Assembly: GCA_019456185.1 (NCBI GenBank)
Contig: VRUH01000019.1
Coordinates: 1,534 to 65,533 of the forward strand
DNA from: Candidatus Glassbacteria bacterium
Lineage (GTDB): Bacteria; Gemmatimonadota; Glassbacteria; GWA2-58-10
Reading direction: 5' to 3'
DNA length: 64,000 nucleotides
The notes beneath the pieces were generated by a model. That model was not told the DNA's origin. It did no database searches and saw nothing but the letters and a program-made list of their open reading frames with translations. Made by a program: the position numbers and the translations under genes. This document shows, one piece after another, positions 3,295 to 35,733 of this stretch (its first letter is position 1; every line of letters begins with the position of its first letter).

Positions 3295-3741
3295 TTAAAT
3301 CAGGAGGACAACACTTCGCAGGCAAACGGAGTTGATGCTATATGCTGGACAGGGAGAAAACAAGTTTCTTCTGTAAGTAGTCTCAAGGGGTGAGAGTAAA
3401 GATGTAGGATTATCCACAAATTCATACTGAATAATGTGCCTGGCTGCATTTTGGCTTGAAGCGCTAGAAATGTGAGGAGTTTTAACAGACAGAGGTATAT
3501 CGGTACATATACCGCAGTGATCTATAGTACACGATCCTGTTTTCGTACAAAATTGAGATATAACATCTGGAAAATCTTTGGCACTCATTGCTGAAAGAGA
3601 TAGCACTCGAAAAGTGCGCTCGATTTCAATGTGGCCATTAGAATTCACACAAAGGACCGAATTCTCGCTGGCAAAGGCTACAAGCAGCAAGTAAATCAGC
3701 AAGCTAAGACTTGAAATAATATGTATGGAGCCTTTTAGCAA
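3295..3741 (-). CDS. Hypothetical small secreted Cys-rich protein (AT-rich ORF)
   Basis: 148-aa ORF with a signal-peptide-like N-terminus and the Cys cluster CTKTGSCTIDHCGICTD. It lies in a low-GC stretch (3300-4140) between czcC and the tRNA. Codon usage is atypical for the host, so whether it is real is uncertain. Confidence 0.35.
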   Translation of the reverse strand: MLKGSIHIISSLSLLIYLLLVAFASENSVLCVNSNGHIEIERTFRVLSLSAMSAKDFPDVISQFCTKTGSCTIDHCGICTDIPLSVKTPHISSASSQNAARHIIQYEFVDNPTSLLSPLETTYRRNLFSPCPAYSINSVCLRSVVLLI

Positions 3742-4142
3742 CCTTGAAAGTTCTCATTTTGAGTACAATAAAATTTCCTACGTGTTGGCGATAATAATAA
3801 GTCTATCCACAAAAGTCAAACGGGCATTAAGATGAAACAGAAATAAGTTCTTTCTTTCAAACAGCATCCAATGGAAAACATCGCTATGACAAGATAGAGT
3901 TAGGAGTAAGCTGTAAAATTCAAAGATATTTGATTGCAATTAATAAGTGCTCAACTCTTTGAATATTACTCCGGAAGAATTAGAGGAATTAAGTACACTA
4001 TCGCATATTTCCCTTGTGAATAGGAAGTGGGCGTGCATATGGGTATAAAAATCTTGAGACGGACAGCAGCAATATAAATGGAAATCTCGCTCTTGGTGAC
4101 TCGACATTGGGGGCAGGTCACCACGTAACTCATTGATAAATA

Positions 4143-4219
4143 TGGTGGGCACTACTGGATTCGAACCAGTGACCTCCTGCTTGTAAGGCAGGCGCTCTAA
4201 CCATCTGAGCTAAGCGCCC
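4143..4219 (-). tRNA. tRNA-Val (anticodon TAC), CCA encoded
   Basis: The reverse complement GGGCGCTTAGCTCAGATGGTTAGAGCGCCTGCCTTACAAGCAGGAGGTCACTGGTTCGAATCCAGTAGTGCCCACCA folds as a cloverleaf. The 7-bp acceptor stem has one G-U pair. Anticodon loop CUUACAA. T-loop TTCGAAT. Confidence 0.9.
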
Positions 4220-4228
4220 ACTGCCCGG

Positions 4229-4453
4229 CTAGATGATAATCGCCAGGGGCACCAGAATGCAGTAACCCACCACCAGGCAAATGGGAGCGAACGTAATCGA
4301 ACCCATGCCCAGAGCGATATGCCCGATCACGATCACCACCAGGGCGATCACGAACAGCAGCAGATTTTTCTGGCTGAAAGCGCGGGATAAATCAGTTGTG
4401 GCAGCCTGCGCCTGAGTTGCCCGACCTCTGTCCTTTTTCCTTTTTTCCGCCAT
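4229..4453 (-). CDS. Small hypothetical membrane protein (74 aa, two TM helices)
   Basis: GC-typical ORF. Basic N-terminus MAEKRKKDRGR followed by two hydrophobic helices. Stops 10 nt from the tRNA. Confidence 0.45.
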   Translation of the reverse strand: MAEKRKKDRGRATQAQAATTDLSRAFSQKNLLLFVIALVVIVIGHIALGMGSITFAPICLVVGYCILVPLAIII

Positions 4454-4545
4454 GACTCGTCTGCCGGTTAAGTTAATTCAGGTTTCGCGGGCTGTTTAAT
4501 TTACACTCCCGCCCCTGTCAGTCAAGCATCATTGGAAAATCCAGC

Positions 4546-5151
4546 TTACCCGGGTTTGACGACGGCCAGATATTCCGAGATGTGATGGTCGTATTCGCTG
4601 GTGCGACGGAAGACAGCCCGGGCCAGCTCGTAGCGCAGTTTCAGGTCCAGGGCACCGCTGTTGGCCCGCAACTGCCCGGTAACCTCTGCGTACTGCTGAG
4701 GCGATGTCACCACGGCGACCGCGGAGAAATTTTTAGCCGCGCTACGCAGCATTGTCGGACCGCCGATATCGATCTGCTCGACGGCTTCCTCGAGAGTCAC
4801 TCCCTGACGCGCCACGGTCTGCTCGAACGGGTACAGGTTGACCACCACCATGTCGATCAACTCGACATTCAGCTCACGACACTGGCGCATATGGTCATCC
4901 AGGTCGCGACGGGCCAGCAGAGCGCCGTGAACTTTAGGATGGAGGGTTTTGACCCGCCCGTCCAGCATCTCGGGATGGCCGGTGTACTGGTCGACACTGC
5001 GAATCTCGATCCCGGCTTCCGACAGGTGGCGGGCGGTTCCTCCCGTCGACAGTATTTCGGCGCCGAACTCTTTCAGCGTCCCGGCCAGCTCGACAACACC
5101 GCTCTTATCGCTGACACTAATCAGCGCCCGCTTGATCTTGATCTTGTTCAT
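4546..5151 (-). CDS. purH: IMP cyclohydrolase domain protein (PurH N-terminal MGS-like domain only, 201 aa; AICAR transformylase domain absent)
   Basis: VSDKSGVVELAGTL...LSTGGTARHL...DGRVKTLHPKVHGALLARRD...VVNLYPF...IDIGGPTMLRSAAKN are hallmark PurH N-domain motifs. The ORF ends after about 200 aa. Confidence 0.8.
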   Translation of the reverse strand: MNKIKIKRALISVSDKSGVVELAGTLKEFGAEILSTGGTARHLSEAGIEIRSVDQYTGHPEMLDGRVKTLHPKVHGALLARRDLDDHMRQCRELNVELIDMVVVNLYPFEQTVARQGVTLEEAVEQIDIGGPTMLRSAAKNFSAVAVVTSPQQYAEVTGQLRANSGALDLKLRYELARAVFRRTSEYDHHISEYLAVVKPG

Positions 5152-5185
5152 GTTATATCCTAAATCGATATAATTTTGTGAGTTA

Positions 5186-5479
5186 TTAATTCTTGGACCT
5201 TGAAATTATGAAAACAGCATCTTCGGAAAATTCGACCTGTTCACCGACAACTAAATCCTCAAATCCTTCCTCTGAAGTATATTTTGAAAGATTAAGAATT
5301 TCTCCTATTATTAAGCCGCTGGACTGTATATTAATTGATCGTATCTTAATTTCCGCCTCTTTATATCTTACGGTGACAATATCATTCTGCTGAATCGGTA
5401 ATTTTAGATATGTAATATCAGGTCCATCTCCACACCATAGAATATTCTTTTCTCTTTCTGTAAAATTTGGGTGTTTCAT
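5186..5479 (-). CDS. Hypothetical protein (97 aa) in an AT-rich ~300-bp insert between purN and purH-N
   Basis: The ORF fills the gap exactly (purN stop 5483, ORF start 5479). Local GC is far below its neighbours. I recognise no family. Confidence 0.4.
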   Translation of the reverse strand: MKHPNFTEREKNILWCGDGPDITYLKLPIQQNDIVTVRYKEAEIKIRSINIQSSGLIIGEILNLSKYTSEEGFEDLVVGEQVEFSEDAVFIISRSKN

Positions 5480-5482
5480 GTT

Positions 5483-6139
5483 TTACTCCTCTCTTAATTT
5501 CACCCGGCCTTCAACAACCTCCACCCGGCCGCTGGCGATCAGTCCGACTACTTCCGGCAGCAATTCGTGTTCCTTTTCGAGTACGCGGGCGGCCAGTTCC
5601 TCAGGCGTGTCCTCGTGGAAAACAGGTACTGCGCTCTGGGCGATAATCGGTCCCCGGTCGTACTCCTCGTTGATGAAATGCACCGTGGGTCCGGAGAGTT
5701 TCGCCCCGGATGCGATGACCGCCTCGTGCACGCGACGGCCGTACATCCCGCGGCCCCCGAACGATGGCAGCAGCGCCGGATGGATGTTGATCATCCTGTT
5801 GCTGTAAACGGCCACCACGTTGGGAGGAACCATCTTGAGATAGCCGGCCAGCACGACCAGCCCCACCCCTCTCTCTTCGAACAGTTCGAGAAGCCTGCGG
5901 CCGAAACCTTCCTGGCTGTCGAAATCCGCCGGGGGCACAATCTCGGTGGCAACTCCGGCTTTCGTTGCGCGATCCAGCGAGCCGGCTCCCGGCCGGTCGG
6001 TAACCACCAGCACCACGCGGGCATGGGCGGATGAACTGTTCCGGTCGGGGAACCGGTCCAGCAGCTTCTGAAGGTTGGTGCCGCCGCCGCTTGCCATCAC
6101 GGCCACCCTCAGTTTCTGCGTTTCGCCTGCATCGGACAT
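5483..6139 (-). CDS. purN: Phosphoribosylglycinamide formyltransferase
   Basis: RVAVMASGGGTNLQ...NIHPALLPSFGG...GPTVHF are the PurN formyl-transferase motifs. Start taken at MSDAGETQKLRVAV. Confidence 0.85.
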   Translation of the reverse strand: MSDAGETQKLRVAVMASGGGTNLQKLLDRFPDRNSSSAHARVVLVVTDRPGAGSLDRATKAGVATEIVPPADFDSQEGFGRRLLELFEERGVGLVVLAGYLKMVPPNVVAVYSNRMINIHPALLPSFGGRGMYGRRVHEAVIASGAKLSGPTVHFINEEYDRGPIIAQSAVPVFHEDTPEELAARVLEKEHELLPEVVGLIASGRVEVVEGRVKLREE

Positions 6140-6203
6140 CCAGTTAACCCGCAAGATCAAATAATTATGGAACCTAAGGAGCAGATAATTCCTGCTGAGG
6201 CGC

Positions 6204-7868
6204 TCAAGCCACCCAACCAGCACGGAACGGCTCTACCGGCCTGCCGTCGCTTGTGGTAAGCAGCTCTGCTTCCGGATCCCAATGCATCCGGCGTCCCAGC
6301 AGATAGCTGGCTGTGGCCATATGCATGGTGATCGCCTCCTGAAAACCATCCCCGATATGGCACAACGTATCCGGATCGTTTGCCCGGATATGCTCGATCC
6401 AGTTTTTGTGGTGCAGGTAGGTGGTACTGACCCTGCGCCCTTCCTTGAAAGTATAGAGCAGGCCTTTCGACAGGCTCCAGCTCGATGTAGCCGATGTTAT
6501 CGCCTCGACCCCCTTGCCTCCCACATTGCGATAGGTAATCATCGGCTTGTCCGGCTGAACCCTGCCACTTTCCAGCCACTCGGCATAGCGGGTGCTGCGG
6601 GGGTCGGCGTAGATATTAACTCCATCGTCGAATTCCATCGTGGCCTCACTGCCCAGATAAATCTGGTCGCGACTGCACGAATTACCCAGAGTGGCATTGT
6701 AAACCACTGTCAGACCCCTGTCAGGCCACTCATAGGTGACCTGGAAAACATCCGGCCACTCACGCTGGAGCAGAGGCACGTCCGGCCTTACCCTGGCTCC
6801 AGCCGGCACCGGCTCGTCCGTACCCAGCGGCTCGCCGTGCTCATCGACCACGGCCTGGTACTGTTTATAGTGGTAAATCCCTCCCGAAGCGGTAGCCGAA
6901 AAGGGAATCCCCAGTTGCATGATCATGTTGATCAGGTCCATCTCGTGAGAAAGCAACTGTCCGGCAAGACCAGTACTGTAATCCTTGAAACATGTCCAGT
7001 TGAAAAAGCGGTTGGGATCGTAGGGCCGGTATTCCCGATTGGATAGATACTGCTCCCAGTCCAAGTTGCGCGCGCCGGAAGAGGCGCTTTGCGGGCCGTG
7101 ACTCCTGGGAACGTCACGGAACCAGGCCCCGTTGTTCGAATTACGGTTCGTGTAGCATTGGATCAGCGTAATATCTCCGAGCATTCCCCTGGCCACCACA
7201 TCCATTGCCGAATCGTACTCCACGCTGTTGCGGTTCTGATGGCCAAGCTGGAATACGATCCCGGCTTTTTTTACCGCATCGCGTAACTCGTAAGCCTCCG
7301 GGATATTCTGGGTCATACACTTCTCTACGTAGACATGTTTGCCGGCCTCGGCCGCTGCCCTGGCAATCGGCGCGTGCCAATGATCGTCAGTTGCGATCAC
7401 CACGGCATCCACGTCACTTTCCGACAACAGTTCCTGGTGAGTGCGATAAGATTTGGCCGTTCCACCCGAAGCACGAACAGCGTAGTCCACGTTAGGCTGA
7501 TACAAGTCACAGACAGCCGTGCAACGAACGTTGAGCGATTCCCTGCTTTCGAGTTCCAGCTTCAGCTCGGCACTCAGCTCTTCGGGCGGGAAGAAACCCA
7601 GGTCGTGGAGATGGTCTTTACCCCTGCTGCCCACGCCAATAAAGCCGATGTTGATCGTATCGTTCGCGCTCTGATAGGAGGCGAGTTTCTTATATTTACG
7701 CTCCATAAAGGGATGAGATTTCGCCGGACCGCCTGCTTGATCAAGGATAATCTCCCGCTTGCTTTGATCATCTCGCCCCTTCCGGAAAGCAGAATATGCA
7801 AAAGCCCCCAGCACGGGAGTACCGGCGGCCGCTTTAAGGAATTCCCGGCGGTCAGGAAATTTATCCAT
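6204..7868 (-). CDS. Tat-exported Gfo/Idh/MocA-family NAD(P)-dependent oxidoreductase (glucose-fructose oxidoreductase-like), ~555 aa
   Basis: Twin-arginine signal DRREFLKAAAGTPVLGAFA. Rossmann motif IGFIGVGSRGKDH. Conserved EKCMT motif. Start at MDKFPDRREFL. The C-terminal extension is larger than in canonical Gfo. Confidence 0.8.
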   Translation of the reverse strand: MDKFPDRREFLKAAAGTPVLGAFAYSAFRKGRDDQSKREIILDQAGGPAKSHPFMERKYKKLASYQSANDTINIGFIGVGSRGKDHLHDLGFFPPEELSAELKLELESRESLNVRCTAVCDLYQPNVDYAVRASGGTAKSYRTHQELLSESDVDAVVIATDDHWHAPIARAAAEAGKHVYVEKCMTQNIPEAYELRDAVKKAGIVFQLGHQNRNSVEYDSAMDVVARGMLGDITLIQCYTNRNSNNGAWFRDVPRSHGPQSASSGARNLDWEQYLSNREYRPYDPNRFFNWTCFKDYSTGLAGQLLSHEMDLINMIMQLGIPFSATASGGIYHYKQYQAVVDEHGEPLGTDEPVPAGARVRPDVPLLQREWPDVFQVTYEWPDRGLTVVYNATLGNSCSRDQIYLGSEATMEFDDGVNIYADPRSTRYAEWLESGRVQPDKPMITYRNVGGKGVEAITSATSSWSLSKGLLYTFKEGRRVSTTYLHHKNWIEHIRANDPDTLCHIGDGFQEAITMHMATASYLLGRRMHWDPEAELLTTSDGRPVEPFRAGWVA

Positions 7869-8070: not shown

Positions 8071-9720
8071 TCAGCTCAACGCCGGAATCGACGGCTCGTG
8101 TTCGAACTCGACCTCGTCGGTTTCCGCATTCCAGTTGATCCGTGTCCCGTTCAGCAGGGCATATGTCGCCATGTGGGCCGTAATCGCCTCCTGGAACCCG
8201 TCGTCGATATCGCACATCGTCTCGTGATTATTATCGCGGATATGGTCGATCCAGTCCTTGATATGCAGGTGGGTGGTATTGACCAGCCTGCCGCCGCGGT
8301 AGGTGTAGAGCAGACCCTTGGCCACGGTCCACTGGGCGGTGGCGGCGGTAATCGCCTCGATACCCTTGCCGGCCACATTGCGGAAAGAGATCATCGGTTC
8401 ATCGGGCTTTACCTTGCCGCTGTCGAGCCATTTGCGGTATTTCCCGCTGCGGCGGTCGGCGTAGACGTCCACGCCGTTGGTCAGGTCCATCGTCGCCTCG
8501 CTGCCCAGGTAGATCTGGCCGCGGCCCCAGCTGTTGCCCAGGGTGGCATTGTAGACCACTGTCAGGTCGTGGCCCTTCCACTCATAGACCACCTGGTACA
8601 CATCGGGCACCTCACGGCACAGCACGGGAACGTCGGACCTGGGTAGCGCGCCGTCGGGGACCGGCACGTCGCTGCTCAGCGGCTCGCCCTCGGCGGTCAT
8701 CAGCGTGGTGTACTCCTTGTGATGGTACACACCGCCGGATGCGGTGGCGCTGGAGGGGATCCCCAGGTTCATCACCATGTTGATCACGTCGAGTTCATGG
8801 GTCAGCAGATCGCCGGAGAGCCCGGTGCCGTAGTCCCAGAAACAGCGCCAGCGGAAAAAGCGGTTGGGATCGTAGGGCCGCTGCACGGTGTTCGATACGT
8901 ATTGATCCCAATCCACGTTGCGCGCGCCGGAGGAGGCGCTCATCGGTCCGTGCTCCTTGGGGATGCCGTAGACCCAGGCGCCGCTGCGGCTGTTGCGGTT
9001 GGTGAAGCACTGGATCAGACTGACATGGCCCAGCATGCCCTTGTCGATCACTTCCATCGCTGAATCGTAGCGGTTGCTGTTACGGTTCTGGTGGCCCAGC
9101 TGGAAGACGACGCCGTTTTTCTTGACCGCATCGCGGACCGCGTAGGCTTCCGGAATCGTTTTAGTCATGCACTTTTCGCAGTAAACATGCTTGCCCGCAT
9201 TGGCCGCGGCGATTGTCACCGGTGCGTGGACGTGGTCGCTGGTGGCGCAGATCACCGCGTCCACGTCGCTGTCGGCCATCAGTTCCTCGTAAGTCTTGTA
9301 CACTTTCGCCGTGCCGCCGGAGGCTTCGACCGCCCATTCAATATTCGGGGTGTGCAGGTCGCAGACCGCGGTGAGCCGGACGTTCAGGTCCTCGGCGCCA
9401 TCCAGCCCGCGGGCGCCTTCCTCGCTGGGCGGATGGAACCCGGCCGCACGCAGCAGGCTCTTGCCCCGGCCGCCGCAGCCGACAATCGCGAGATTCAGCG
9501 TATCGTTGGCGCTGGCTTTGCGCTGGTAATTGCGCTTGAGCACGTTCGGGTTGGTTCCGGCCGTTTCCTTGCCGATCGAGAGGATTTCTTCCCGGGCCAG
9601 TGTATCGCGTTGTTTTTTATCGTAAAGCGAGAGTCCGAAAGCGCCGAGCACTGGGGTGGTGGCGGCCGCTTTCAGGAAGTCCCTCCTGTTTACGCCGGAT
9701 CTTCTATCATTGTCAGCCAT
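8071..9720 (-). CDS. Tat-exported Gfo/Idh/MocA-family oxidoreductase, tandem paralog of 6204..7868
   Basis: Tat motif NRRDFLKAAATTPVLGAFG. About 60-65% identity to the neighbour over the core (AVCDL..P..AV.ASGGTAK.Y..EL...DVDAV..AT.DH.HAP..AAA.AGKHVY.EKCMT). GAGGAG RBS. Confidence 0.8.
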   Translation of the reverse strand: MADNDRRSGVNRRDFLKAAATTPVLGAFGLSLYDKKQRDTLAREEILSIGKETAGTNPNVLKRNYQRKASANDTLNLAIVGCGGRGKSLLRAAGFHPPSEEGARGLDGAEDLNVRLTAVCDLHTPNIEWAVEASGGTAKVYKTYEELMADSDVDAVICATSDHVHAPVTIAAANAGKHVYCEKCMTKTIPEAYAVRDAVKKNGVVFQLGHQNRNSNRYDSAMEVIDKGMLGHVSLIQCFTNRNSRSGAWVYGIPKEHGPMSASSGARNVDWDQYVSNTVQRPYDPNRFFRWRCFWDYGTGLSGDLLTHELDVINMVMNLGIPSSATASGGVYHHKEYTTLMTAEGEPLSSDVPVPDGALPRSDVPVLCREVPDVYQVVYEWKGHDLTVVYNATLGNSWGRGQIYLGSEATMDLTNGVDVYADRRSGKYRKWLDSGKVKPDEPMISFRNVAGKGIEAITAATAQWTVAKGLLYTYRGGRLVNTTHLHIKDWIDHIRDNNHETMCDIDDGFQEAITAHMATYALLNGTRINWNAETDEVEFEHEPSIPALS

Positions 9721-20434: not shown

Positions 20435-20454
20435 AGCCTGGAGAGACTCATCGT

Positions 20455-20495
20455 AAAAAAAGCCGTCCGGGATAACCCGGACAGCTTTTTTTACG
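20455..20495. terminator. Bidirectional rho-independent terminator (A7-stem-loop-T7)
   Basis: aaaaaaAGCCGTCCGGGataaCCCGGACAGCttttttt, seen directly between the convergent pilX and OMP genes. Confidence 0.65.
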
Positions 20496-20537
20496 GTGAT
20501 ATGAACAAGAAATACGCTTTTGCCGATAAAATCATGG

Positions 20538-31728: not shown

Positions 31729-32934
31729 TTAAGAATCTTTGGCTTCCCCGCCGACCAGTACCACAGCCCGTGCGGCCACAGCCTCCTCCCGCCCTACCGG
31801 CCCGACACCCTCGTTGGTCTTGGCCTTGACATTCACCGCTGCGAGATCCATCTCCAGGATACCGGCGATCCTGGCCCTGATTTTTTCCATGTGAGGTGCT
31901 AGCCTGGGCCGCTGGGCGATAACAGTCGCGTCCAGATTGACCGGTATCCAGCCGAGAGCGGCCACTTTTGCGGCTGCCCGCCGCAGCAGCACCGCGCTGT
32001 CCGCGTCTTTATATTCGGGATCGTCGTCGGGGAACAGCCGGCCGATATCCCCGGCGGCGGCCGCTCCCAGCAGCGCGTCGGTGATTGCGTGCAGCAGCAC
32101 GTCGGCGTCGCTGTGGCCGGCCAGCCCGAACTCGTAAGGAATTTCCACACCGCCGATTATCAGCCGACGGCCCCGCTCCAGGCGGTGGAGGTCATAGCCC
32201 TCGCCAATCCTGAACGGCAGACCCGTCATCGGCCCCTCCAGTTTCCAGCGGACAAAGTCCAGGTCCGCCTCTGCGGTCAGCTTGATATTCCCGTGGTCGC
32301 CCGGTACGATCCTGACCTCGTGGCCGAACCTCTCGCAAAGCGCCGCGTCGTCGGTGGCCTCGACTCCCTCCCGCCGCGCCCGACGGTGAGCGTCCAGGAT
32401 CAGCTTGAGGCGGAATGTCTGCGGAGTCTGGGCCAGCCACAGGTTCTCCCGGTCCAATGTGCCGGCAACCACGCCGCCCTCGCCGCGCTTAACCGTATCG
32501 CGCATCGAGGCGCAGAGCATCGCGCAACCAAACTCGTCGGCCACCTCGAACGTGCGGCGGACAAGCTCCGGGTTTACCAGCGGACGGGCCGCATCATGGA
32601 TTGCGACCAGCTTGGCGCCGCTGTCCTCCAGCGTTGCGAGAGCGTTGTACACCGACTGCTGCCTGGTTTCGCCGCCCTCGGCCAGATGGACGATTCCACG
32701 CTCGCGCTCATTCAGTTCAGGGCTGAAATTTTCCAGCGTGTCGCCCGGCAAAGCCACGACAATCCTGACAACTTCCGGCAGCGCCAGGAACGGGCGGAAA
32801 CTGTGCTGCAGGATACTCGCCCCGCCGATCCGGATAAACTGCTTGCGGATGTCGCCGCCCATGCGCAGGCCCCTGCCCCCGGCGGCGATCACCGCCGCGC
32901 AAGGCGGCAGTTTTTTCGCTTTGGATTTACTCAT
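31729..32934 (-). CDS. ispDF: Bifunctional 2-C-methyl-D-erythritol 4-phosphate cytidylyltransferase / 2-C-methyl-D-erythritol 2,4-cyclodiphosphate synthase
   Basis: N-terminal IspD ([12 protein letters not shown]). C-terminal IspF ([11 protein letters not shown]...[21 protein letters not shown]). Start MSKSKAKK at about 32934. Confidence 0.9.
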
Positions 32935-33000
32935 CGGATATCCGTTGCTTTTCAGAAATACGATCAAAAACCCGGAATGCCAGCAGAAGGGCAAAAAACA

Positions 33001-33130
33001 CAACCCCCTGTTTCCCCCTTTATCAAGGGGGACTAAAACTACATCGCTCTGACCCCGATGGAAGTCCGATCATAGCTTTTCAATTTCCTCTAGGCAAAGG
33101 GGGTGCCCGCCGCGGGCAGGGGTGGGTAGT
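33001..33130 (+). repeat. Intergenic repeat copy A (~130 bp), partner of copy B at 34687..34809
   Basis: Shares a 23-nt identical start (CAACCCCCTGTTTCCCCCTTTAT) and a conserved 3' block (TTTCCyCTwrGCAAAGGnGGTGCCyGC..GCGGG..GGTGGG) with copy B. The middle is variable. Contains the hairpin CCCCCTTTATCAAGGGGG. Confidence 0.6.
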
Positions 33131-33173
33131 CATGCTCCGGGGTGGTGCAAGATAAAGCCGCCCGGCGCCAGGT

Positions 33174-34583
33174 TCAAGCATCGCGTGCGGAATCCGGCGC
33201 CAGGGCTTCCCGGACAGCCTCGGCCAGACGGTCGCAGGAGGAAACTTCAATGCGTCCGCCCCCACCGTCCTCATCACGCACCGGCGGGCAGACTATCCTG
33301 CCGAATCCCAGCTTGGCGGCCTCCGCGCAACGCCGCTGCATGTGTCCCACCGAACGCAGTTCACCGCCCAGGCCGACCTCGCCGGCGAACACCGCCCGCG
33401 GGTCGAGCGGCTTGTCACGCAGGGCGCTGAAAAGTCCCAGGCAGATACCCAGGTCGGCGGCCGGTTCCACCAGCCGAAGGCCGCCGGCGACATTGACAAA
33501 CACGTCATGGCTCGAAAGCGGCAGACCCAGCCGTTTTTCGAGAATCGCGAGCATGATCGCCAGGCGGCGGCTGTCGTAACCGGTGCTGACTCGCTGGGCG
33601 GTCCCGTAGCCCGTGGGCGTTACCAGCGCCTGGACCTCCACCAGCAGCGGGCGGGTACCCTCCATGGTGCAGACCACCGCCGAGCCGGGCGCTCCCTCGG
33701 TGCGGCCCTCCAGGAAATAGCCGCTCAGGTCGCTCACCTCTTCCAGACCGGAGCCGCTCATGCGAAACAGGCCGATCTCGTTGGTGGAGCCGAACCGGTT
33801 CTTGACCACGCGCAGGATGCGGTGGGTCTGGCTGCCCTCGCCCTCGAAATAGAGTACGGTGTCCACCATGTGCTCCAGCAGACGGGGGCCGGCAATCGAG
33901 CCGTCCTTGGTGACATGGCCGACAAGGATCACTGTCACCCCGCCGCTCTTGGCCAGCCGGAGGAATCCGGCCGCTGTCTCACGCACTTGCGAGACACTGC
34001 CGGGGATCGAGTCCAGGGCGGAGACATAGACCGTCTGGATCGAGTCGACAATCAGCACGTCGGGACGGTCGCGCTCCAGCACCTGCTCCACAGTCTCGAA
34101 ACAGGTCTCGGTGATCAGCTTCAGCCCATCTCCTCCATCGACTCCCAACCTGCGGGCACGCATGGCGATCTGGCTCGCGCTCTCCTCTCCCGAGAGATAG
34201 AGCACCCTGCCGCCACCGTCGGCCAGCCGCCCGGCGAGCTGGAGCATCAGCGTACTCTTGCCGATCCCCGGATCGCCGCCCAGCAGCAGGAGAGATCCCG
34301 GCACGAGTCCGCCGCCGAGGATATGGTCCAGTTCGCCGATCCCGGAGCGTAACCTGGGAGGTTCGCCCCCGCCGCCCCTGATCACCTCGGCCAGCAGCAC
34401 CGCGCCTCCCGGCCCGGCAGCGCCATTACCGACCCTGTGCGACGGCTGGCGGGAGGGGCCGGAGTTCTGGACCACGCGTTCAACCAGGCTGTCCCAGTCT
34501 CCGCAGTTGGAACAGCGGCCCTGCCATTTGGCGAACGATGCTGCGCAGGAGGTGCATTCGTATCTGGTTCTTGTTTTAGCCAT
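33174..34583 (-). CDS. radA: DNA repair protein RadA/Sms
   Basis: N-terminal Zn-ribbon CTSCAASFAKWQGRCSNCGDW. Walker A GDPGIGKST. Lon-like C-domain. Confidence 0.9.
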   Translation of the reverse strand: MAKTRTRYECTSCAASFAKWQGRCSNCGDWDSLVERVVQNSGPSRQPSHRVGNGAAGPGGAVLLAEVIRGGGGEPPRLRSGIGELDHILGGGLVPGSLLLLGGDPGIGKSTLMLQLAGRLADGGGRVLYLSGEESASQIAMRARRLGVDGGDGLKLITETCFETVEQVLERDRPDVLIVDSIQTVYVSALDSIPGSVSQVRETAAGFLRLAKSGGVTVILVGHVTKDGSIAGPRLLEHMVDTVLYFEGEGSQTHRILRVVKNRFGSTNEIGLFRMSGSGLEEVSDLSGYFLEGRTEGAPGSAVVCTMEGTRPLLVEVQALVTPTGYGTAQRVSTGYDSRRLAIMLAILEKRLGLPLSSHDVFVNVAGGLRLVEPAADLGICLGLFSALRDKPLDPRAVFAGEVGLGGELRSVGHMQRRCAEAAKLGFGRIVCPPVRDEDGGGGRIEVSSCDRLAEAVREALAPDSARDA

Positions 34584-34686
34584 AATTTGGTACTAAAGCG
34601 CCGGGCGGACACATGTGTCCGCCCCTGCAAAAATGCTGATCTCATGGGCGACGCAGGCGTTACCCCTACGGTTAAACTAAAATTAA

Positions 34687-34809
34687 CAACCCCCTGTTTC
34701 CCCCTTTATTAAGGGTAAGGGGGATTTTCCAGCGAGTAATCCAGCGGAGGTAAAAATAATATTTCCCCTTAGCAAAGGTGGTGCCTGCTGAAAGCGGGTG
34801 GGGGTTGTC
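34687..34809 (+). repeat. Intergenic repeat copy B (~123 bp)
   Basis: See copy A. Same orientation, about 1.55 kb away, on the other side of radA. Contains the hairpin CCCCCTTTATTAAGGG(taa)GGGGG. Confidence 0.6.
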
Positions 34810-34851
34810 TGCAAGAAACAGCTGGCAAATACATAAAAAACCAGTTCAGGA

Positions 34852-35733
34852 TCAAAACGGCGAAATATTAATAAACTTGTCGGGCTGTTCGCGGAATTCG
34901 CGGATCAGGTTGCGCGCTTCGAGCGTGGTCGCGCGAAGGTCTTCGTAGAGCCGCTCGTCCCGCATCAGCCTGCCCAGCGTCCCGCGGCCGTCCTCGATTG
35001 CCACCAGCATGGTATCCAGCCTGGCCGAGGTGCTTTTCAGCTTGGCGAGCACAGTTGAGATATCGTCCTGATTTTCATCCACGGCACGGCGGATCCTGAC
35101 GGCGGCGGAATCGAGCGAGGCCATGGTTTCCTCCAGCAGGCGGCCGTAGCTGTCGAACCGCTCACTGAACTCGAGTCCGTTTTTGGTGAGCTGCTCCACG
35201 TTATCGAGAGTGCGGTTGAACGTGCCTCCCGGCCCCAGCAGGCTGTCGATCCGGTTGATCAGCCTGCTGGCGTCGGCCAGCAGCAGGTTCGAGCGCTGAG
35301 CCACCACCACGCCCTCCTTGATCAGATCGCGCAGCCCGGGCGCCAGATCACCTCTGATCCTCGCGCCGGGACGGATCGGTGCGCCATCGTTGATTTCGAG
35401 TTGAAGGTAGGCCTCGCCGAACACGTCGGAGGCATCGATCAGGGCTACGGAGTTTTCATAAAGCGCGATACCGCTGCCCACCGTGAAATTTACCACCGCC
35501 TGCCTGCCCTCCAGGAAAATCGACCGCACTCGCCCCACCGGCACACCGGCGACAGTCACGTTATCGCCGACTTTCAGCAGACCCACCTGCTCGTAGCCCG
35601 CACTGTAGTTAACCTTGTCCTGACTGGAGAGATAGCCCCTCAGGAAGAACACTGTCCAGAGCACGACCGCAAATGCAGCCACCACCACCACACCGACAAT
35701 TATCGTTTCCCTGCTGCGGGAATCCATTGTCAC
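34852..35733 (-). CDS. mlaD: MlaD/MCE-domain protein (ABC transporter periplasmic component)
   Basis: N-terminal TM helix plus Mce domain (GLLKVGDNVTVAGVPVGRV). Adjacent to mlaE and mlaF. Confidence 0.75.
   Translation of the reverse strand: MTMDSRSRETIIVGVVVVAAFAVVLWTVFFLRGYLSSQDKVNYSAGYEQVGLLKVGDNVTVAGVPVGRVRSIFLEGRQAVVNFTVGSGIALYENSVALIDASDVFGEAYLQLEINDGAPIRPGARIRGDLAPGLRDLIKEGVVVAQRSNLLLADASRLINRIDSLLGPGGTFNRTLDNVEQLTKNGLEFSERFDSYGRLLEETMASLDSAAVRIRRAVDENQDDISTVLAKLKSTSARLDTMLVAIEDGRGTLGRLMRDERLYEDLRATTLEARNLIREFREQPDKFINISPF

Follow-up and report, generated by a model that had tools for sequence, protein, structure and literature searches.

The two direct repeats that bracket radA in a 64-kb stretch of Candidatus Glassbacteria DNA (hereafter the window) probably represent two insertions of a non-coding, non-autonomous, MITE/REPIN-like family of ~125-150 nt residing in the intergenic regions of these bacteria, a reading to which we assign a probability of about 0.75. 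A MITE/REP-like element was one of several options raised in an earlier note on this DNA, and it is the option favoured by a multi-copy dispersed family, inverted-repeat ends, orthologous sites that are filled, fragmentary or empty, nesting, and tandem arrays. The one unusual feature of the family is the conservation of its core across phyla.

Two copies with inverted, hairpin-bearing ends

Copy A (~135 nt; 32993..33130, minus strand; delimited by sequence, modular parse and fold) lies between radA and ispDF, and copy B (~131 nt; 34679..34811, minus strand; sequence and fold) between mlaD and radA. The three genes are all on the minus strand: an mlaD-like gene of 293 aa upstream of copy B (34852..35733; ORF, with an MlaD domain in the syntenic genes of the relatives L202-L205 and L210), radA of 469 aa (33174..34583; ORF, Pfam families and RadA homologues) and, downstream of copy A, ispDF (31729..32935, its start set at the ATG at 32935; ORF, its syntenic counterparts in L202 and L203 having IspD and YgbB domains). 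Both copies are intergenic and noncoding, the listed ORFs (at least 60 aa) that cross them being frames that run through from adjacent sequence. A scan of the whole 64 kb, covariance model included, found these two copies only.

The identical 23-nt block by which the repeats had been recognised, CAACCCCCTGTTTCCCCCTTTAT, is exact at 33001-33023 and 34687-34709, on the plus strand in both cases; it is the longest perfect identity between the copies, and with up to 3 mismatches allowed it has 2 matches in the window versus 0 in 100 shuffles. It forms part of a shared block of 37 nt at 89% identity (32993-33029 versus 34679-34715). Both copies also have the conserved 3' block and its GC hairpin. 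The repeats extend a little beyond the limits first given, to the T-runs at 32993 and 34679 on one side and to the terminal GGGGTGGGTA (33119-33128) and GGGGGTTGTC (34800-34809) on the other. The C5-loop-G5 hairpin described for both copies is a clean C5TT/AAG5 stem in copy A but not in copy B, where 14 nt separate the outer C5 from the outer G5 and an inner stem, CCCTT/AAGGG, lies between them.

Read on the minus strand, each copy runs through ACAACCCCC, a GC hairpin, a CCCCYYT/ARRGGGG hairpin, a variable stretch of 40-60 nt and a right end of the form RTCCCCCTT-loop-AAAGGGGG-AMACN-GGGGGTTGTG, followed by a T-run; the left end is the inverted counterpart of the right end, with a GC-rich hairpin in place of the short spacer. 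In copy A, the left end (33087..33128, minus strand; sequence and parse), which mirrors the right-end unit in inverted orientation, consists of the terminal TACCCACCCC (33119-33128), the GC hairpin TGCCCGCGGCGGGCA (33104-33118) and a degenerate CCCCCTTTGCCTAGAGG hairpin (33087-33103). It is followed by a variable middle (33042..33086, minus strand), not conserved in copy B or the other copies, and by the right-end unit of 46 nt, TAGTTTTAGTCCCCCTTGATAAAGGGGGAAACAGGGGGTTGTGTTT (32996..33041, minus strand; covariance-model match of 59.5 bits, E 6e-20), in which we distinguish the hairpin (33014-33031), the second G5 (33004-33008) and the terminal TTGTG (32999-33003), the T-run occupying 32993-32998. 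The left end of copy B (34765..34809, minus strand; sequence, parse and a matching left end at the orthologous site in L203) comprises the terminal GACAACCCCC (34800-34809), the GC hairpin ACCCGCTTTCAGCAGGC (34783-34799) and a CCACCTTTGCTAAGGGG hairpin (34765-34782), and its right-end unit (34682..34733, minus strand; 47.4 bits, E 3e-15) carries an 8-nt insertion in the hairpin (ATCCCCCTTACCCTTAATAAAGGGGGAAACAGGGGGTTGTTAAT). These common modules were parsed in 12 of 13 full-length copies, which measure 125-168 nt, and in the same proportion of them the ends form terminal inverted repeats, the left (C)ACA(A)CCCC(C)...CCCCYYT-loop-ARRGGGGA mirroring the right TCCCCCTT-loop-AAAGGGGG...GGGGGTTGTG.

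Folding predictions agree with this parse. Copy A is predicted to form an end-to-end helix (RNAfold, -53.4 kcal/mol, z -2.0) and copy B a structure closed by ACAACCCCC/GGGGGUUGU (-46.7 kcal/mol, z -3.1); the end-to-end pairing is predicted on both strands, and either strand gives a multi-hairpin fold, whereas a closing helix plus the U-tract UUGUGUUUUUU occurs in one orientation only, and a simple terminator scan did not call any. The GC hairpin is found with at least 6 different stem sequences, the predicted hairpin being kept throughout, and its variation is compensatory, which is equally compatible with a DNA palindrome. It is predicted at -8.8 kcal/mol in copy A. The change seen in copy B, previously described as U-G-compatible, is so on the plus strand, which is antisense to all neighbouring genes; on the minus, gene-sense strand both positions become A.C mismatches, and the predicted fold there is only -3.5 kcal/mol. 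The unit hairpin is nearly invariant, with 364 of 384 cells C-G or T-A, 3 T.G and 5 C.A, so that a wobble-asymmetry test has no power, and this near-invariance extends to unpaired positions; the bases preceding the unit stem are variable, mostly R-R-T.

Dispersed copies and empty orthologous sites

The repeat is multi-copy and dispersed, and not limited to the two loci of the window. An exact scan with the 18-mer core, with one genome per species, found at least 120 loci against ~17 expected by chance in 596 Gb; in a single Glassbacteria MAG of ~4 Mb (CAVVYO01), 9 contigs together carry at least 29 exact-core loci, besides diverged copies, and the covariance model recovered more than 50 units across 36 Glassbacteria-type loci. 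Units occur solo (L203, L208), in head-to-head pairs (L011, L111), in tail-to-tail pairs (L012, L079, L082, L094, L116), in tandem arrays of whole elements and in nested insertions, and in the Glassbacteria MAG they are interleaved with classical GTAG-tagged REPs. Where an inverted unit pair encloses ORFs, these are ordinary genes, namely purD (L082) and one for a TPR/MAP3K-like protein (L094), and in L023 such a pair encloses a membrane protein gene plus an unassigned 162-aa ORF. One contig, L208, terminates within a unit, an example of how these repeats explain assembly breaks in such MAGs. This dispersal refutes a local duplication of promoter or UTR sequence confined to the radA neighbourhood, to which we give practically no credence: it is true that only 1.7 kb separates the two direct copies, both of them fuller than many remote ones, but the unit is present in well over 100 unrelated loci of many genomes, and that of copy A is closer to remote copies (95-98%) than to copy B with its 8-nt hairpin insertion.

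Among the listed loci, 13 are in tandem and co-oriented with the flanking genes, 14 in tandem and anti-oriented, 11 convergent, 3 divergent and 1 genic. Orientation relative to the flanking genes is thus random, while the elements prefer gene 3' ends and avoid divergent, promoter-containing regions, convergent regions being enriched and divergent ones depleted. The neighbouring genes are unrelated housekeeping genes of no common class.

These context statistics largely refute the proposal that the copies act within the radA and ispDF 5' leaders as structured cis-regulatory RNAs or as members of a family of small ncRNA genes, which we now regard as very improbable. The proposal drew on the position of both window copies upstream of, and co-oriented with, a gene, on their stable predicted folds, on GC-hairpin pairing retained through differing sequences and on promoter-like hexamers in copy A. 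Those sigma-70-like hexamers, TTGCCT-17-TATGAT on the minus strand at 33097-33069, are indeed there, and a promoter scan called 1 site versus 0.4 expected; however, they overlap the left edge of the middle, which is not conserved, and neither copy B nor the other copies have them. In addition to the random orientation in the 41 intergenic contexts and the lack of a common function among the downstream genes, (i) the element is absent from the radA and ispDF leaders of L204, L205 and L209; (ii) both strands fold equally, as for DNA palindromes; (iii) the GC hairpin of copy B has its A.C mismatches on the gene-sense strand; and (iv) an Rfam scan gave no match on the elements, at the gathering threshold or even at E<=10, nor in 14 loci from several phyla. 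With strands oriented at random, an attenuator in which the C5 run would pair alternately with either G5 run could also be rejected as a general function. The string ACAACCCC, which we take to resemble ACANCCCC of the nadA/NAD+-I riboswitch, was also considered and rejected, having no Rfam match at E<=10 and lying on the antisense strand. For annotation purposes, the radA and ispDF "leaders" of this window are better marked as repeat insertions than as regulatory RNA.

Orthologous loci, gathered by protein search plus contig look-ups, allowed sites to be compared in seven relatives, and the cluster dnaB-mlaE-mlaF-mlaD-radA-ispDF is syntenic in relatives; the RadA-related loci obtained from the metagenome scan, at 54% identity or less, had no useful synteny. 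The mlaD-radA intergenic region, 268 nt long with its element in the window, is empty in L204 (74 nt), L205 (120 nt) and L209 (52 nt), and in L202 and L203 it holds a nested or fragmentary element. Between radA and ispDF there is a full element in the window and in L202, a solo unit in L208 and a solo hairpin in L203, whereas in L205 the region is empty (73 nt). Just upstream of radA and outside the repeat, a pre-existing GC palindrome, GGGGCGGACACATGTGTCCGCCC (34603..34633, minus strand), preceded by TTTTTGCAG, aligns with the empty site of L204 (...GTTCTTGCA|GGGGCACGGCATGCCGTGCCC); from this alignment, it appears to mark the ancestral intergenic sequence beside which a block of ~190 nt was inserted. 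TTGCAG directly precedes the left end of copy B (34810-34815), and a TTGCAG duplication (up to ~14 nt) flanks the ~190-nt block containing this copy, the only such case, there being no consistent target-site duplication in the 13 full-length copies; TTGCA(G/C) is found at both insertion sites of the window. The comparison of sites points to mobility, and presence or absence could in part reflect deletion. The suggestion that the direct repeats might mediate excision or duplication of radA found no support: each of the seven relatives has a single copy of the gene, at an unchanged position.

A core conserved across phyla

The core of ~45-46 nt is nearly unchanged in more than 10 phyla, its hosts including Glassbacteria, anammox Planctomycetota, Balneolaceae/Bacteroidota, Ignavibacteria, Elusimicrobiota, WOR-3, Nitrospirota, Chloroflexota, Desulfobacterota and Omnitrophota, among others. 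Over 42-46 nt, the copy A unit shares 95-98% identity with those of Glassbacteria and Planctomycetota MAGs, whereas the RadA relatives recovered from other lineages are only ~50% identical, a disparity that would imply either recent transfer of a tiny non-coding element between phyla or strong selection on a shared recognition site. In the other phyla, the units mostly take the form of two-stem hairpins set between A- and T-tracts. A neutral selfish repeat would not need conservation of the degree seen in the unit, which could be a sign of a function in the host.

In a rival reading, the 45-nt unit would be a selected, host-recruited module, for example a terminator-like or mRNA-stabilising hairpin or a site bound by a conserved DNA- or RNA-binding protein, for which the surrounding repeat is simply the vehicle. 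The near-invariance of the unit, unpaired positions included, and the identity between Glassbacteria and Planctomycetota units set against that of RadA speak for it, as do the T-run after the unit (the closing helix would set a U-tract behind a strong stem), the excess of convergent and scarcity of divergent contexts, and the two-stem hairpins between A- and T-tracts of other phyla. Yet only 24 of the 41 units follow a gene of the same orientation, no U-tract is present in the reverse orientation, the units went uncalled in the simple terminator scan, many relatives do without the element at equivalent sites, and a terminator under selection would not be expected to form tandem arrays or to nest. 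We judge it unlikely. Far less probable still is that the units are solitary derivatives of CRISPR repeats: the 30-mer GTTTTAGTCCCCCTTGATAAAGGGGGAAAC of copy A is superficially alike in length, internal hairpin and GAAAC end, with a GTTTTAG...GAAAC look, but the window has no array or regular spacing, conservation runs 16 nt past the GAAAC, the GTTTTAG prefix is not conserved among copies, the units form the inverted terminal pairs of a larger element, and no Cas family is found among the recurrent neighbours. Moreover, the tandem cases seen elsewhere repeat an entire unit of 127 or 213 nt at 87-89% identity, inter-unit sequence included, and so have no unique spacers.

If the copies are MITE/REPIN-like insertions, as we favour, they would be mobilised in trans, now or formerly, by the product of a gene located elsewhere, an enzyme recognising the near-invariant 45-nt terminal unit; together with the REP-like doublets, the palindromes contained in the terminal repeats hint that this may be an HUH/Y1-type (RAYT-like) enzyme reading single-stranded DNA hairpins. 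The elements of the window would then be passengers. If co-transcribed with mlaD-radA-ispDF, they are predicted to form a stable structure with a 9-10-bp GC closing helix and then a U-rich tract, which could incidentally attenuate read-through or stabilise the upstream mRNA, effects known for REPs and SPRITE-type MITEs.

The ~8-kb neighbourhoods of the 120 loci listed contained no transposase or RAYT near any unit and no cognate IS with like ends. No associated enzyme emerged from all-versus-all clustering of the ORFs in these loci with Pfam searches on the recurrent clusters, from Pfam on 131 neighbouring genes (with no Y1_Tnp, TnpA or TnpB among the recurrent families) or from Pfam on the 10 genes directly flanked by units, and phmmer with the E. 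coli RayT against the 3939 ORFs of all fetched loci (~1 Mb of flanking DNA) gave nothing at E<=1. BLAST of the repeat against plasmids and phages returned nothing, and a search of IMG/VR one match only. A full-text literature search for the core sequence retrieved only unrelated papers matching shorter strings, and literature searches on the repeats of anammox bacteria and of Glassbacteria brought up no description; the repeats of Candidatus Glassbacteria and of comparable uncultured lineages seem not to have been described.

A bolder proposal, which we hold as speculative, is that the ~45-nt unit (hairpin C5TT/AAG5, AMACN, G5-(T/A)T) may serve as the recognition module for a so far undescribed superfamily of repeats that spreads horizontally; present in more than 10 phyla, the unit would be embedded in larger lineage-specific repeats and serviced by an HUH-type or other enzyme or by a conserved host factor, and it would be a third class of "tagged palindrome" beside the GTAG and CGTC REPs. 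Should transfer of, or selection on, the core hold, it could lead to a new transposase-repeat partnership.

Comparison with known repeat systems

The family shares traits with several known systems. Like the IS200/IS605-derived PATEs and HUH ends in general, it has subterminal hairpins, a conserved short stretch between hairpin foot and terminus and no consistent target duplication, and it may insert beside a specific short sequence, TTGCA(G/C) being present at both sites of the window. The ends of IS200/IS605 carry hairpins in direct orientation, whereas those of the Glassbacteria repeat are inverted; no TnpA or TnpB was found nearby, and the IS605-orfB RNA motif had no Rfam match on the elements or in the 14 loci from several phyla. 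Rickettsia palindromic elements (RPE) insert into ORFs (PMC10969869), and one unit in a Planctomycetota MAG (L004) does lie in frame inside the ORF of a PLD-SNF2 helicase, within the Helicase_C match; unlike RPE, this is a single case in a family that is overwhelmingly intergenic (1 of 42 contexts genic).

Prokaryotic MITEs with structured ends include the Correia elements of Neisseria and the pneumococcal SPRITE, BOX and RUP repeats (PMC10969869). As in these, the Glassbacteria elements are non-coding, 100-200 nt long and inverted at their ends, with many dispersed intergenic copies, stable predicted folds, clustering, mutual insertion, occasional promoter- or terminator-like content and presence/absence from strain to strain. 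In contrast to them, the Glassbacteria repeat has no identified cognate IS or transposase and no consistent target-site duplication, each of its terminal repeats holds a perfect hairpin of its own, and its core is common to more than 10 phyla, the other families being genus-specific.

With the REP/BIME/REPIN elements, which are mobilised by RAYT (Y1 HUH) transposases (PMC3116915, PMC3337134, PMC3733652), the family has in common a short GC-rich palindromic unit found as singletons, as inverted doublets in both arrangements and in mosaics, extragenic location, a preference for gene 3' ends and no consistent target duplication. It differs from them in that its unit has neither of the tags, GTAG and CGTC, by which the two REP superfamilies are defined (PMC3733652), and that no RAYT is found in the ~1 Mb of flanking DNA. 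Finally, REPIN/RAYT systems have been described as vertically inherited and lineage-specific, whereas the 45-nt unit crosses phyla.

The two copies beside radA

Copies A (32993-33130, between radA and ispDF) and B (34679-34811, between mlaD and radA) are best explained as two insertions of a genomic repeat that is of an ordinary kind but undescribed. The mlaD-like gene (34852-35733), radA (33174-34583) and ispDF (31729-32935) all lie on the minus strand, so that each copy falls between genes and runs in their direction. The earlier note had described direct repeats around radA, and these are real: the 23-mer CAACCCCCTGTTTCCCCCTTTAT has two exact matches in the window, at 33001 and 34687 of the plus strand, and none in dinucleotide-preserving shuffles at up to 3 mismatches, while the block common to both copies reaches 37 nt at 89% identity in the repeat finder. 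Alignment of the two intergenic regions also recovered the conserved 3' block and the GC hairpin within it, and the promoter-like TTGCCT-17-TATGAT is present in copy A. Other details needed amendment: (i) the elements run a few bases further, at both ends, than the limits first proposed (33001-33130 and 34687-34809); (ii) the C5-loop-G5 hairpin ascribed to both copies is interrupted in copy B; and (iii) the GC-hairpin change described as U-G-compatible is so on the plus strand, antisense to the genes, but gives two A.C mismatches on the sense strand.

Read on the minus strand, the element opens with (G)ACAACCCCC (TACCCACCCC in copy A), followed by a GC-rich hairpin, a CCCCYYT-loop-ARRGGGG hairpin, a variable middle of 40-60 nt, a right-end hairpin (RTCCCCCTT-loop-AAAGGGGG), an AAACA spacer and the right terminus GGGGGTTGTG, then a T-run; this order is common to 12 of the 13 full-length copies collected. 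The left end follows the plan of the right in inverted form, with the GC hairpin in place of the TGTTT spacer, and in RNAfold an end-to-end helix closes both copies. The predicted minus-strand folds (copy A, -53.4 kcal/mol, z -2.0; copy B, -46.7 kcal/mol, z -3.1) are nearly equalled on the plus strand (z -1.4 and -2.5), a result to be expected of DNA palindromes. At least six stem sequences occur in the left GC hairpin, each still a predicted hairpin, which shows a structural constraint that a DNA palindrome would satisfy equally well; the hairpin of the right-end module (hereafter the unit, of 45-46 nt) is nearly invariant and therefore offers no covariation.

Elsewhere in the window, a direct repeat of 195 nt at 72% identity (6594-6836 and 8446-8688, spacing 1852 nt) and shorter ones (7801-7846 and 9638-9683, spacing 1837 nt) lie at constant spacings and suggest two tandem paralogous genes. 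A 24-nt inverted repeat at 20448-20499 (92% complementary, 4-nt loop, A- and T-runs beside it, TCATCGTAAAAAAAGCCGTCCGGG/CCCGGACAGCTTTTTTTACGGTGA) looks like a bidirectional intrinsic terminator. The sole Rfam match in the window is a tRNA gene (4146-4219, minus strand, 75.5 bits).

Occupied and empty sites in relatives

By its best RadA homologues, the source belongs to Candidatus Glassbacteria. Seven relatives were compared at the radA locus (RadA identity 71-87%), and the order dnaB-mlaE-mlaF-mlaD-radA-ispDF is kept in those with long enough contigs. Between mlaD and radA, where the window has 268 nt with the element, it is absent from L204 (74 nt), L205 (120 nt) and L209 (52 nt); L202 carries several nested elements, L203 the left end only plus about 600 nt of other material, and L208 and L210 unrelated content. 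Between radA and ispDF, the window and L202 have the full element (with a decayed right end in L202), L208 has a solo unit and L203 a solo hairpin, and L205 is empty (73 nt). Against the empty sites the junctions can be read: for copy B, ...GTTTCTTGCAG/ACAACCCCC... in the window versus ...GTTCTTGCAG/GGGCACGGCATGCCGTGCCC in L204; for copy A, ...TATCTTGCAC/CACCCC... versus ...TATCTTGCAC/GGGCCGCC...GGCGGCCTTTTT in L205. Each insertion thus follows TTGCA(G/C) and has a pre-existing GC hairpin immediately 3' of it, and at the copy B site a second TTGCAG before the retained hairpin (34603-34625) delimits an insertion of about 190 nt.

On the minus strand, that retained hairpin is the GC palindrome GGGGCGGACACATGTGTCCGCCC, preceded by GCAG and placed shortly before the start of radA. 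Its site is kept with compensatory changes (GGGGCACGGCATGCCGTGCCC in L204, GGGGACACGGCATGCCGTGTCCC in L203, GGGGCAGACCCATGTGTCTGCCC in L210), and it resembles GTAGGGGCGCGGCATGCCGCGCCC, the GTAG REP that is abundant in the Glassbacteria MAG; it may belong to a second repeat family, or be a leader or terminator hairpin conserved at radA. The Logan contig with the closest RadA relative (L208, 87% identity) ends exactly inside a unit (1876-1917), which would fit a multi-copy repeat at which assembly broke off.

A core shared among phyla

The similarity is not confined to these two loci. The 18-mer core AAAGGGGGAAACAGGGGG, searched in one genome per species (596 Gb), occurs at at least 120 loci, with about 17 matches expected by chance, and one Glassbacteria MAG of about 4 Mb (CAVVYO01) accounts for at least 29. 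Among the matches listed are other Glassbacteria, a 'Gemmatimonadales'-labelled MAG (RadA 83% identical, synteny as in the window), anammox Planctomycetota (Brocadia, Kuenenia, Scalindua, Wunengus), Balneolaceae/Rhodohalobacter, Chitinophagaceae, Ignavibacteria, Elusimicrobiota, WOR-3, Nitrospirota, Chloroflexota/Dehalococcoidia, Desulfobacterota, Omnitrophota and others. Among the occurrences listed, 107 of 125 have the complementary TCCCCCTT arm upstream at the right distance, and a T two bases past the second G5 is invariant; the search pattern required neither. A covariance model built on the 46-nt unit found only copies A and B in the window (E 6e-20 for A, 3e-15 for B). In 36 loci of Glassbacteria type it found more than 50 units and, at E<=1e-6, 115 matches in 80 other loci, mostly of other phyla. 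Over 42-46 nt, the copy A unit has 95-98% identity with units of Glassbacteria and of AT-rich Planctomycetota contigs, whereas the RadA relatives recovered in other lineages have only about 50%. The near-identity of this 45-nt core across many phyla is the unusual residue; it suggests that the core spread between phyla or that selection acts strongly on a recognition site, and merits genome-scale study.

Gene contexts were taken from a GC3-based caller, which recovers the known minus-strand order at about 27-41 kb of the window. In GC-rich loci, 41 units are intergenic (13 co-oriented tandem, 14 anti-oriented tandem, 11 convergent, 3 divergent) and one further unit is genic; they thus favour neither strand and avoid only divergent spacers, those in which promoters lie. 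The neighbouring genes have unrelated housekeeping functions, the promoter-like hexamers fall in copy A's non-conserved middle, and the Rfam scan proposed earlier gave no match on the elements, at the gathering threshold or E<=10, in the window and 14 loci from several phyla. The repeat is no known RNA family, and the radA-specific readings of the earlier note fall away.

Units occur solo or in tandem, and also paired head-to-head or tail-to-tail. Tandem arrays of whole elements are present in a Bacteroidetes MAG (L027, 5316-5719, 127-nt period, 3.2 copies) and a Flavobacteriales MAG (L033, 2954-3461, 213-nt period, 2.4 copies), an inverted unit pair is the core of a larger MITE of about 190 nt with termini TGTAACAGTTCA...TGAACTGTTACA (L011, L086, L111, L112; Brocadiaceae and a Planctomycetota MAG), and in the Glassbacteria MAG classical GTAG REPs flank many units on both sides.

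A Glassbacteria contig (L078, about 2730-2895) has head-to-tail 31-nt hairpin units with the full unit last. The Balneolaceae repeat differs, reading AACCTGAGTTCGATTAATAAATTATTTATTGGAAGT-unit-ATGTTCATCAGAATATCGCAAAATCCAGTGAACACCCCTC (L018, L028, L032, L037, L069, L077, L108, L109 and L117 in MAG JBBDPF01; L084 in a Rhodohalobacter isolate), and its second G5 pairs with a downstream C-run, not with an upstream one. After the T-run, a subset of Glassbacteria copies (L013, L016, L038, L044, L051, L057, L072, L103) has a further conserved block, roughly CAYYTTTCAACACRC, which recurs in L208 (about 80-120), upstream of radA, in palindromic form (TTTTTTCAACGC...GCGTGTTGAAAAA) and may be another repeat module. 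In a Planctomycetota MAG (L004), a unit at 6016-6061 lies in frame inside the ORF (3685-7083) of a 1132-aa PLD-SNF2 helicase, within the Helicase_C match (residues 719-841), resembling the in-frame insertions of Rickettsia palindromic elements. In Acinetobacter kookii and A. cumulans isolates (L040, L096), a single unit stands 17-65 nt past an apparent stop codon, after genes of identical C-terminal sequence; the sites seem to be orthologous, and the unit there has the look of a terminator hairpin, not of a dispersed repeat.

Mobilisation and known families

Neighbourhoods of about 8 kb yielded no mobilising enzyme: clustering over the 120 loci gave no recurrent ORFs, Pfam scans of recurrent and flanking genes nothing relevant, and phmmer with RayT no match among 3939 ORFs, a negative that is weak evidence given so short a span. 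Nor do the copies show a consistent target-site duplication. The REPIN-like doublets, and the hairpins that lie within the terminal repeats, hint at a possible single-strand hairpin recognition of the HUH type. The repeat is not a CRISPR remnant, and phage and plasmid collections gave no match. No published description of the sequence came to light; in full-text literature the core sequence returned only unrelated papers matching shorter strings.

Set against the definitions and precedents for MITEs and REPs (PMC10969869, PMC3116915, PMC3733652), the repeat behaves much as REPs and REPINs do, but it lacks the GTAG/CGTC tag that defines them and its neighbourhoods of about 8 kb gave no RAYT, and it is therefore not to be filed as a REP sensu stricto. 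No consistent target duplication and, in those neighbourhoods, no parent IS came to light; the repeat matches MITEs in size, inverted ends, copy number and site polymorphism, which bears out the MITE/REP-like option of the earlier note: by structure and behaviour, the repeat is MITE/REPIN-like.
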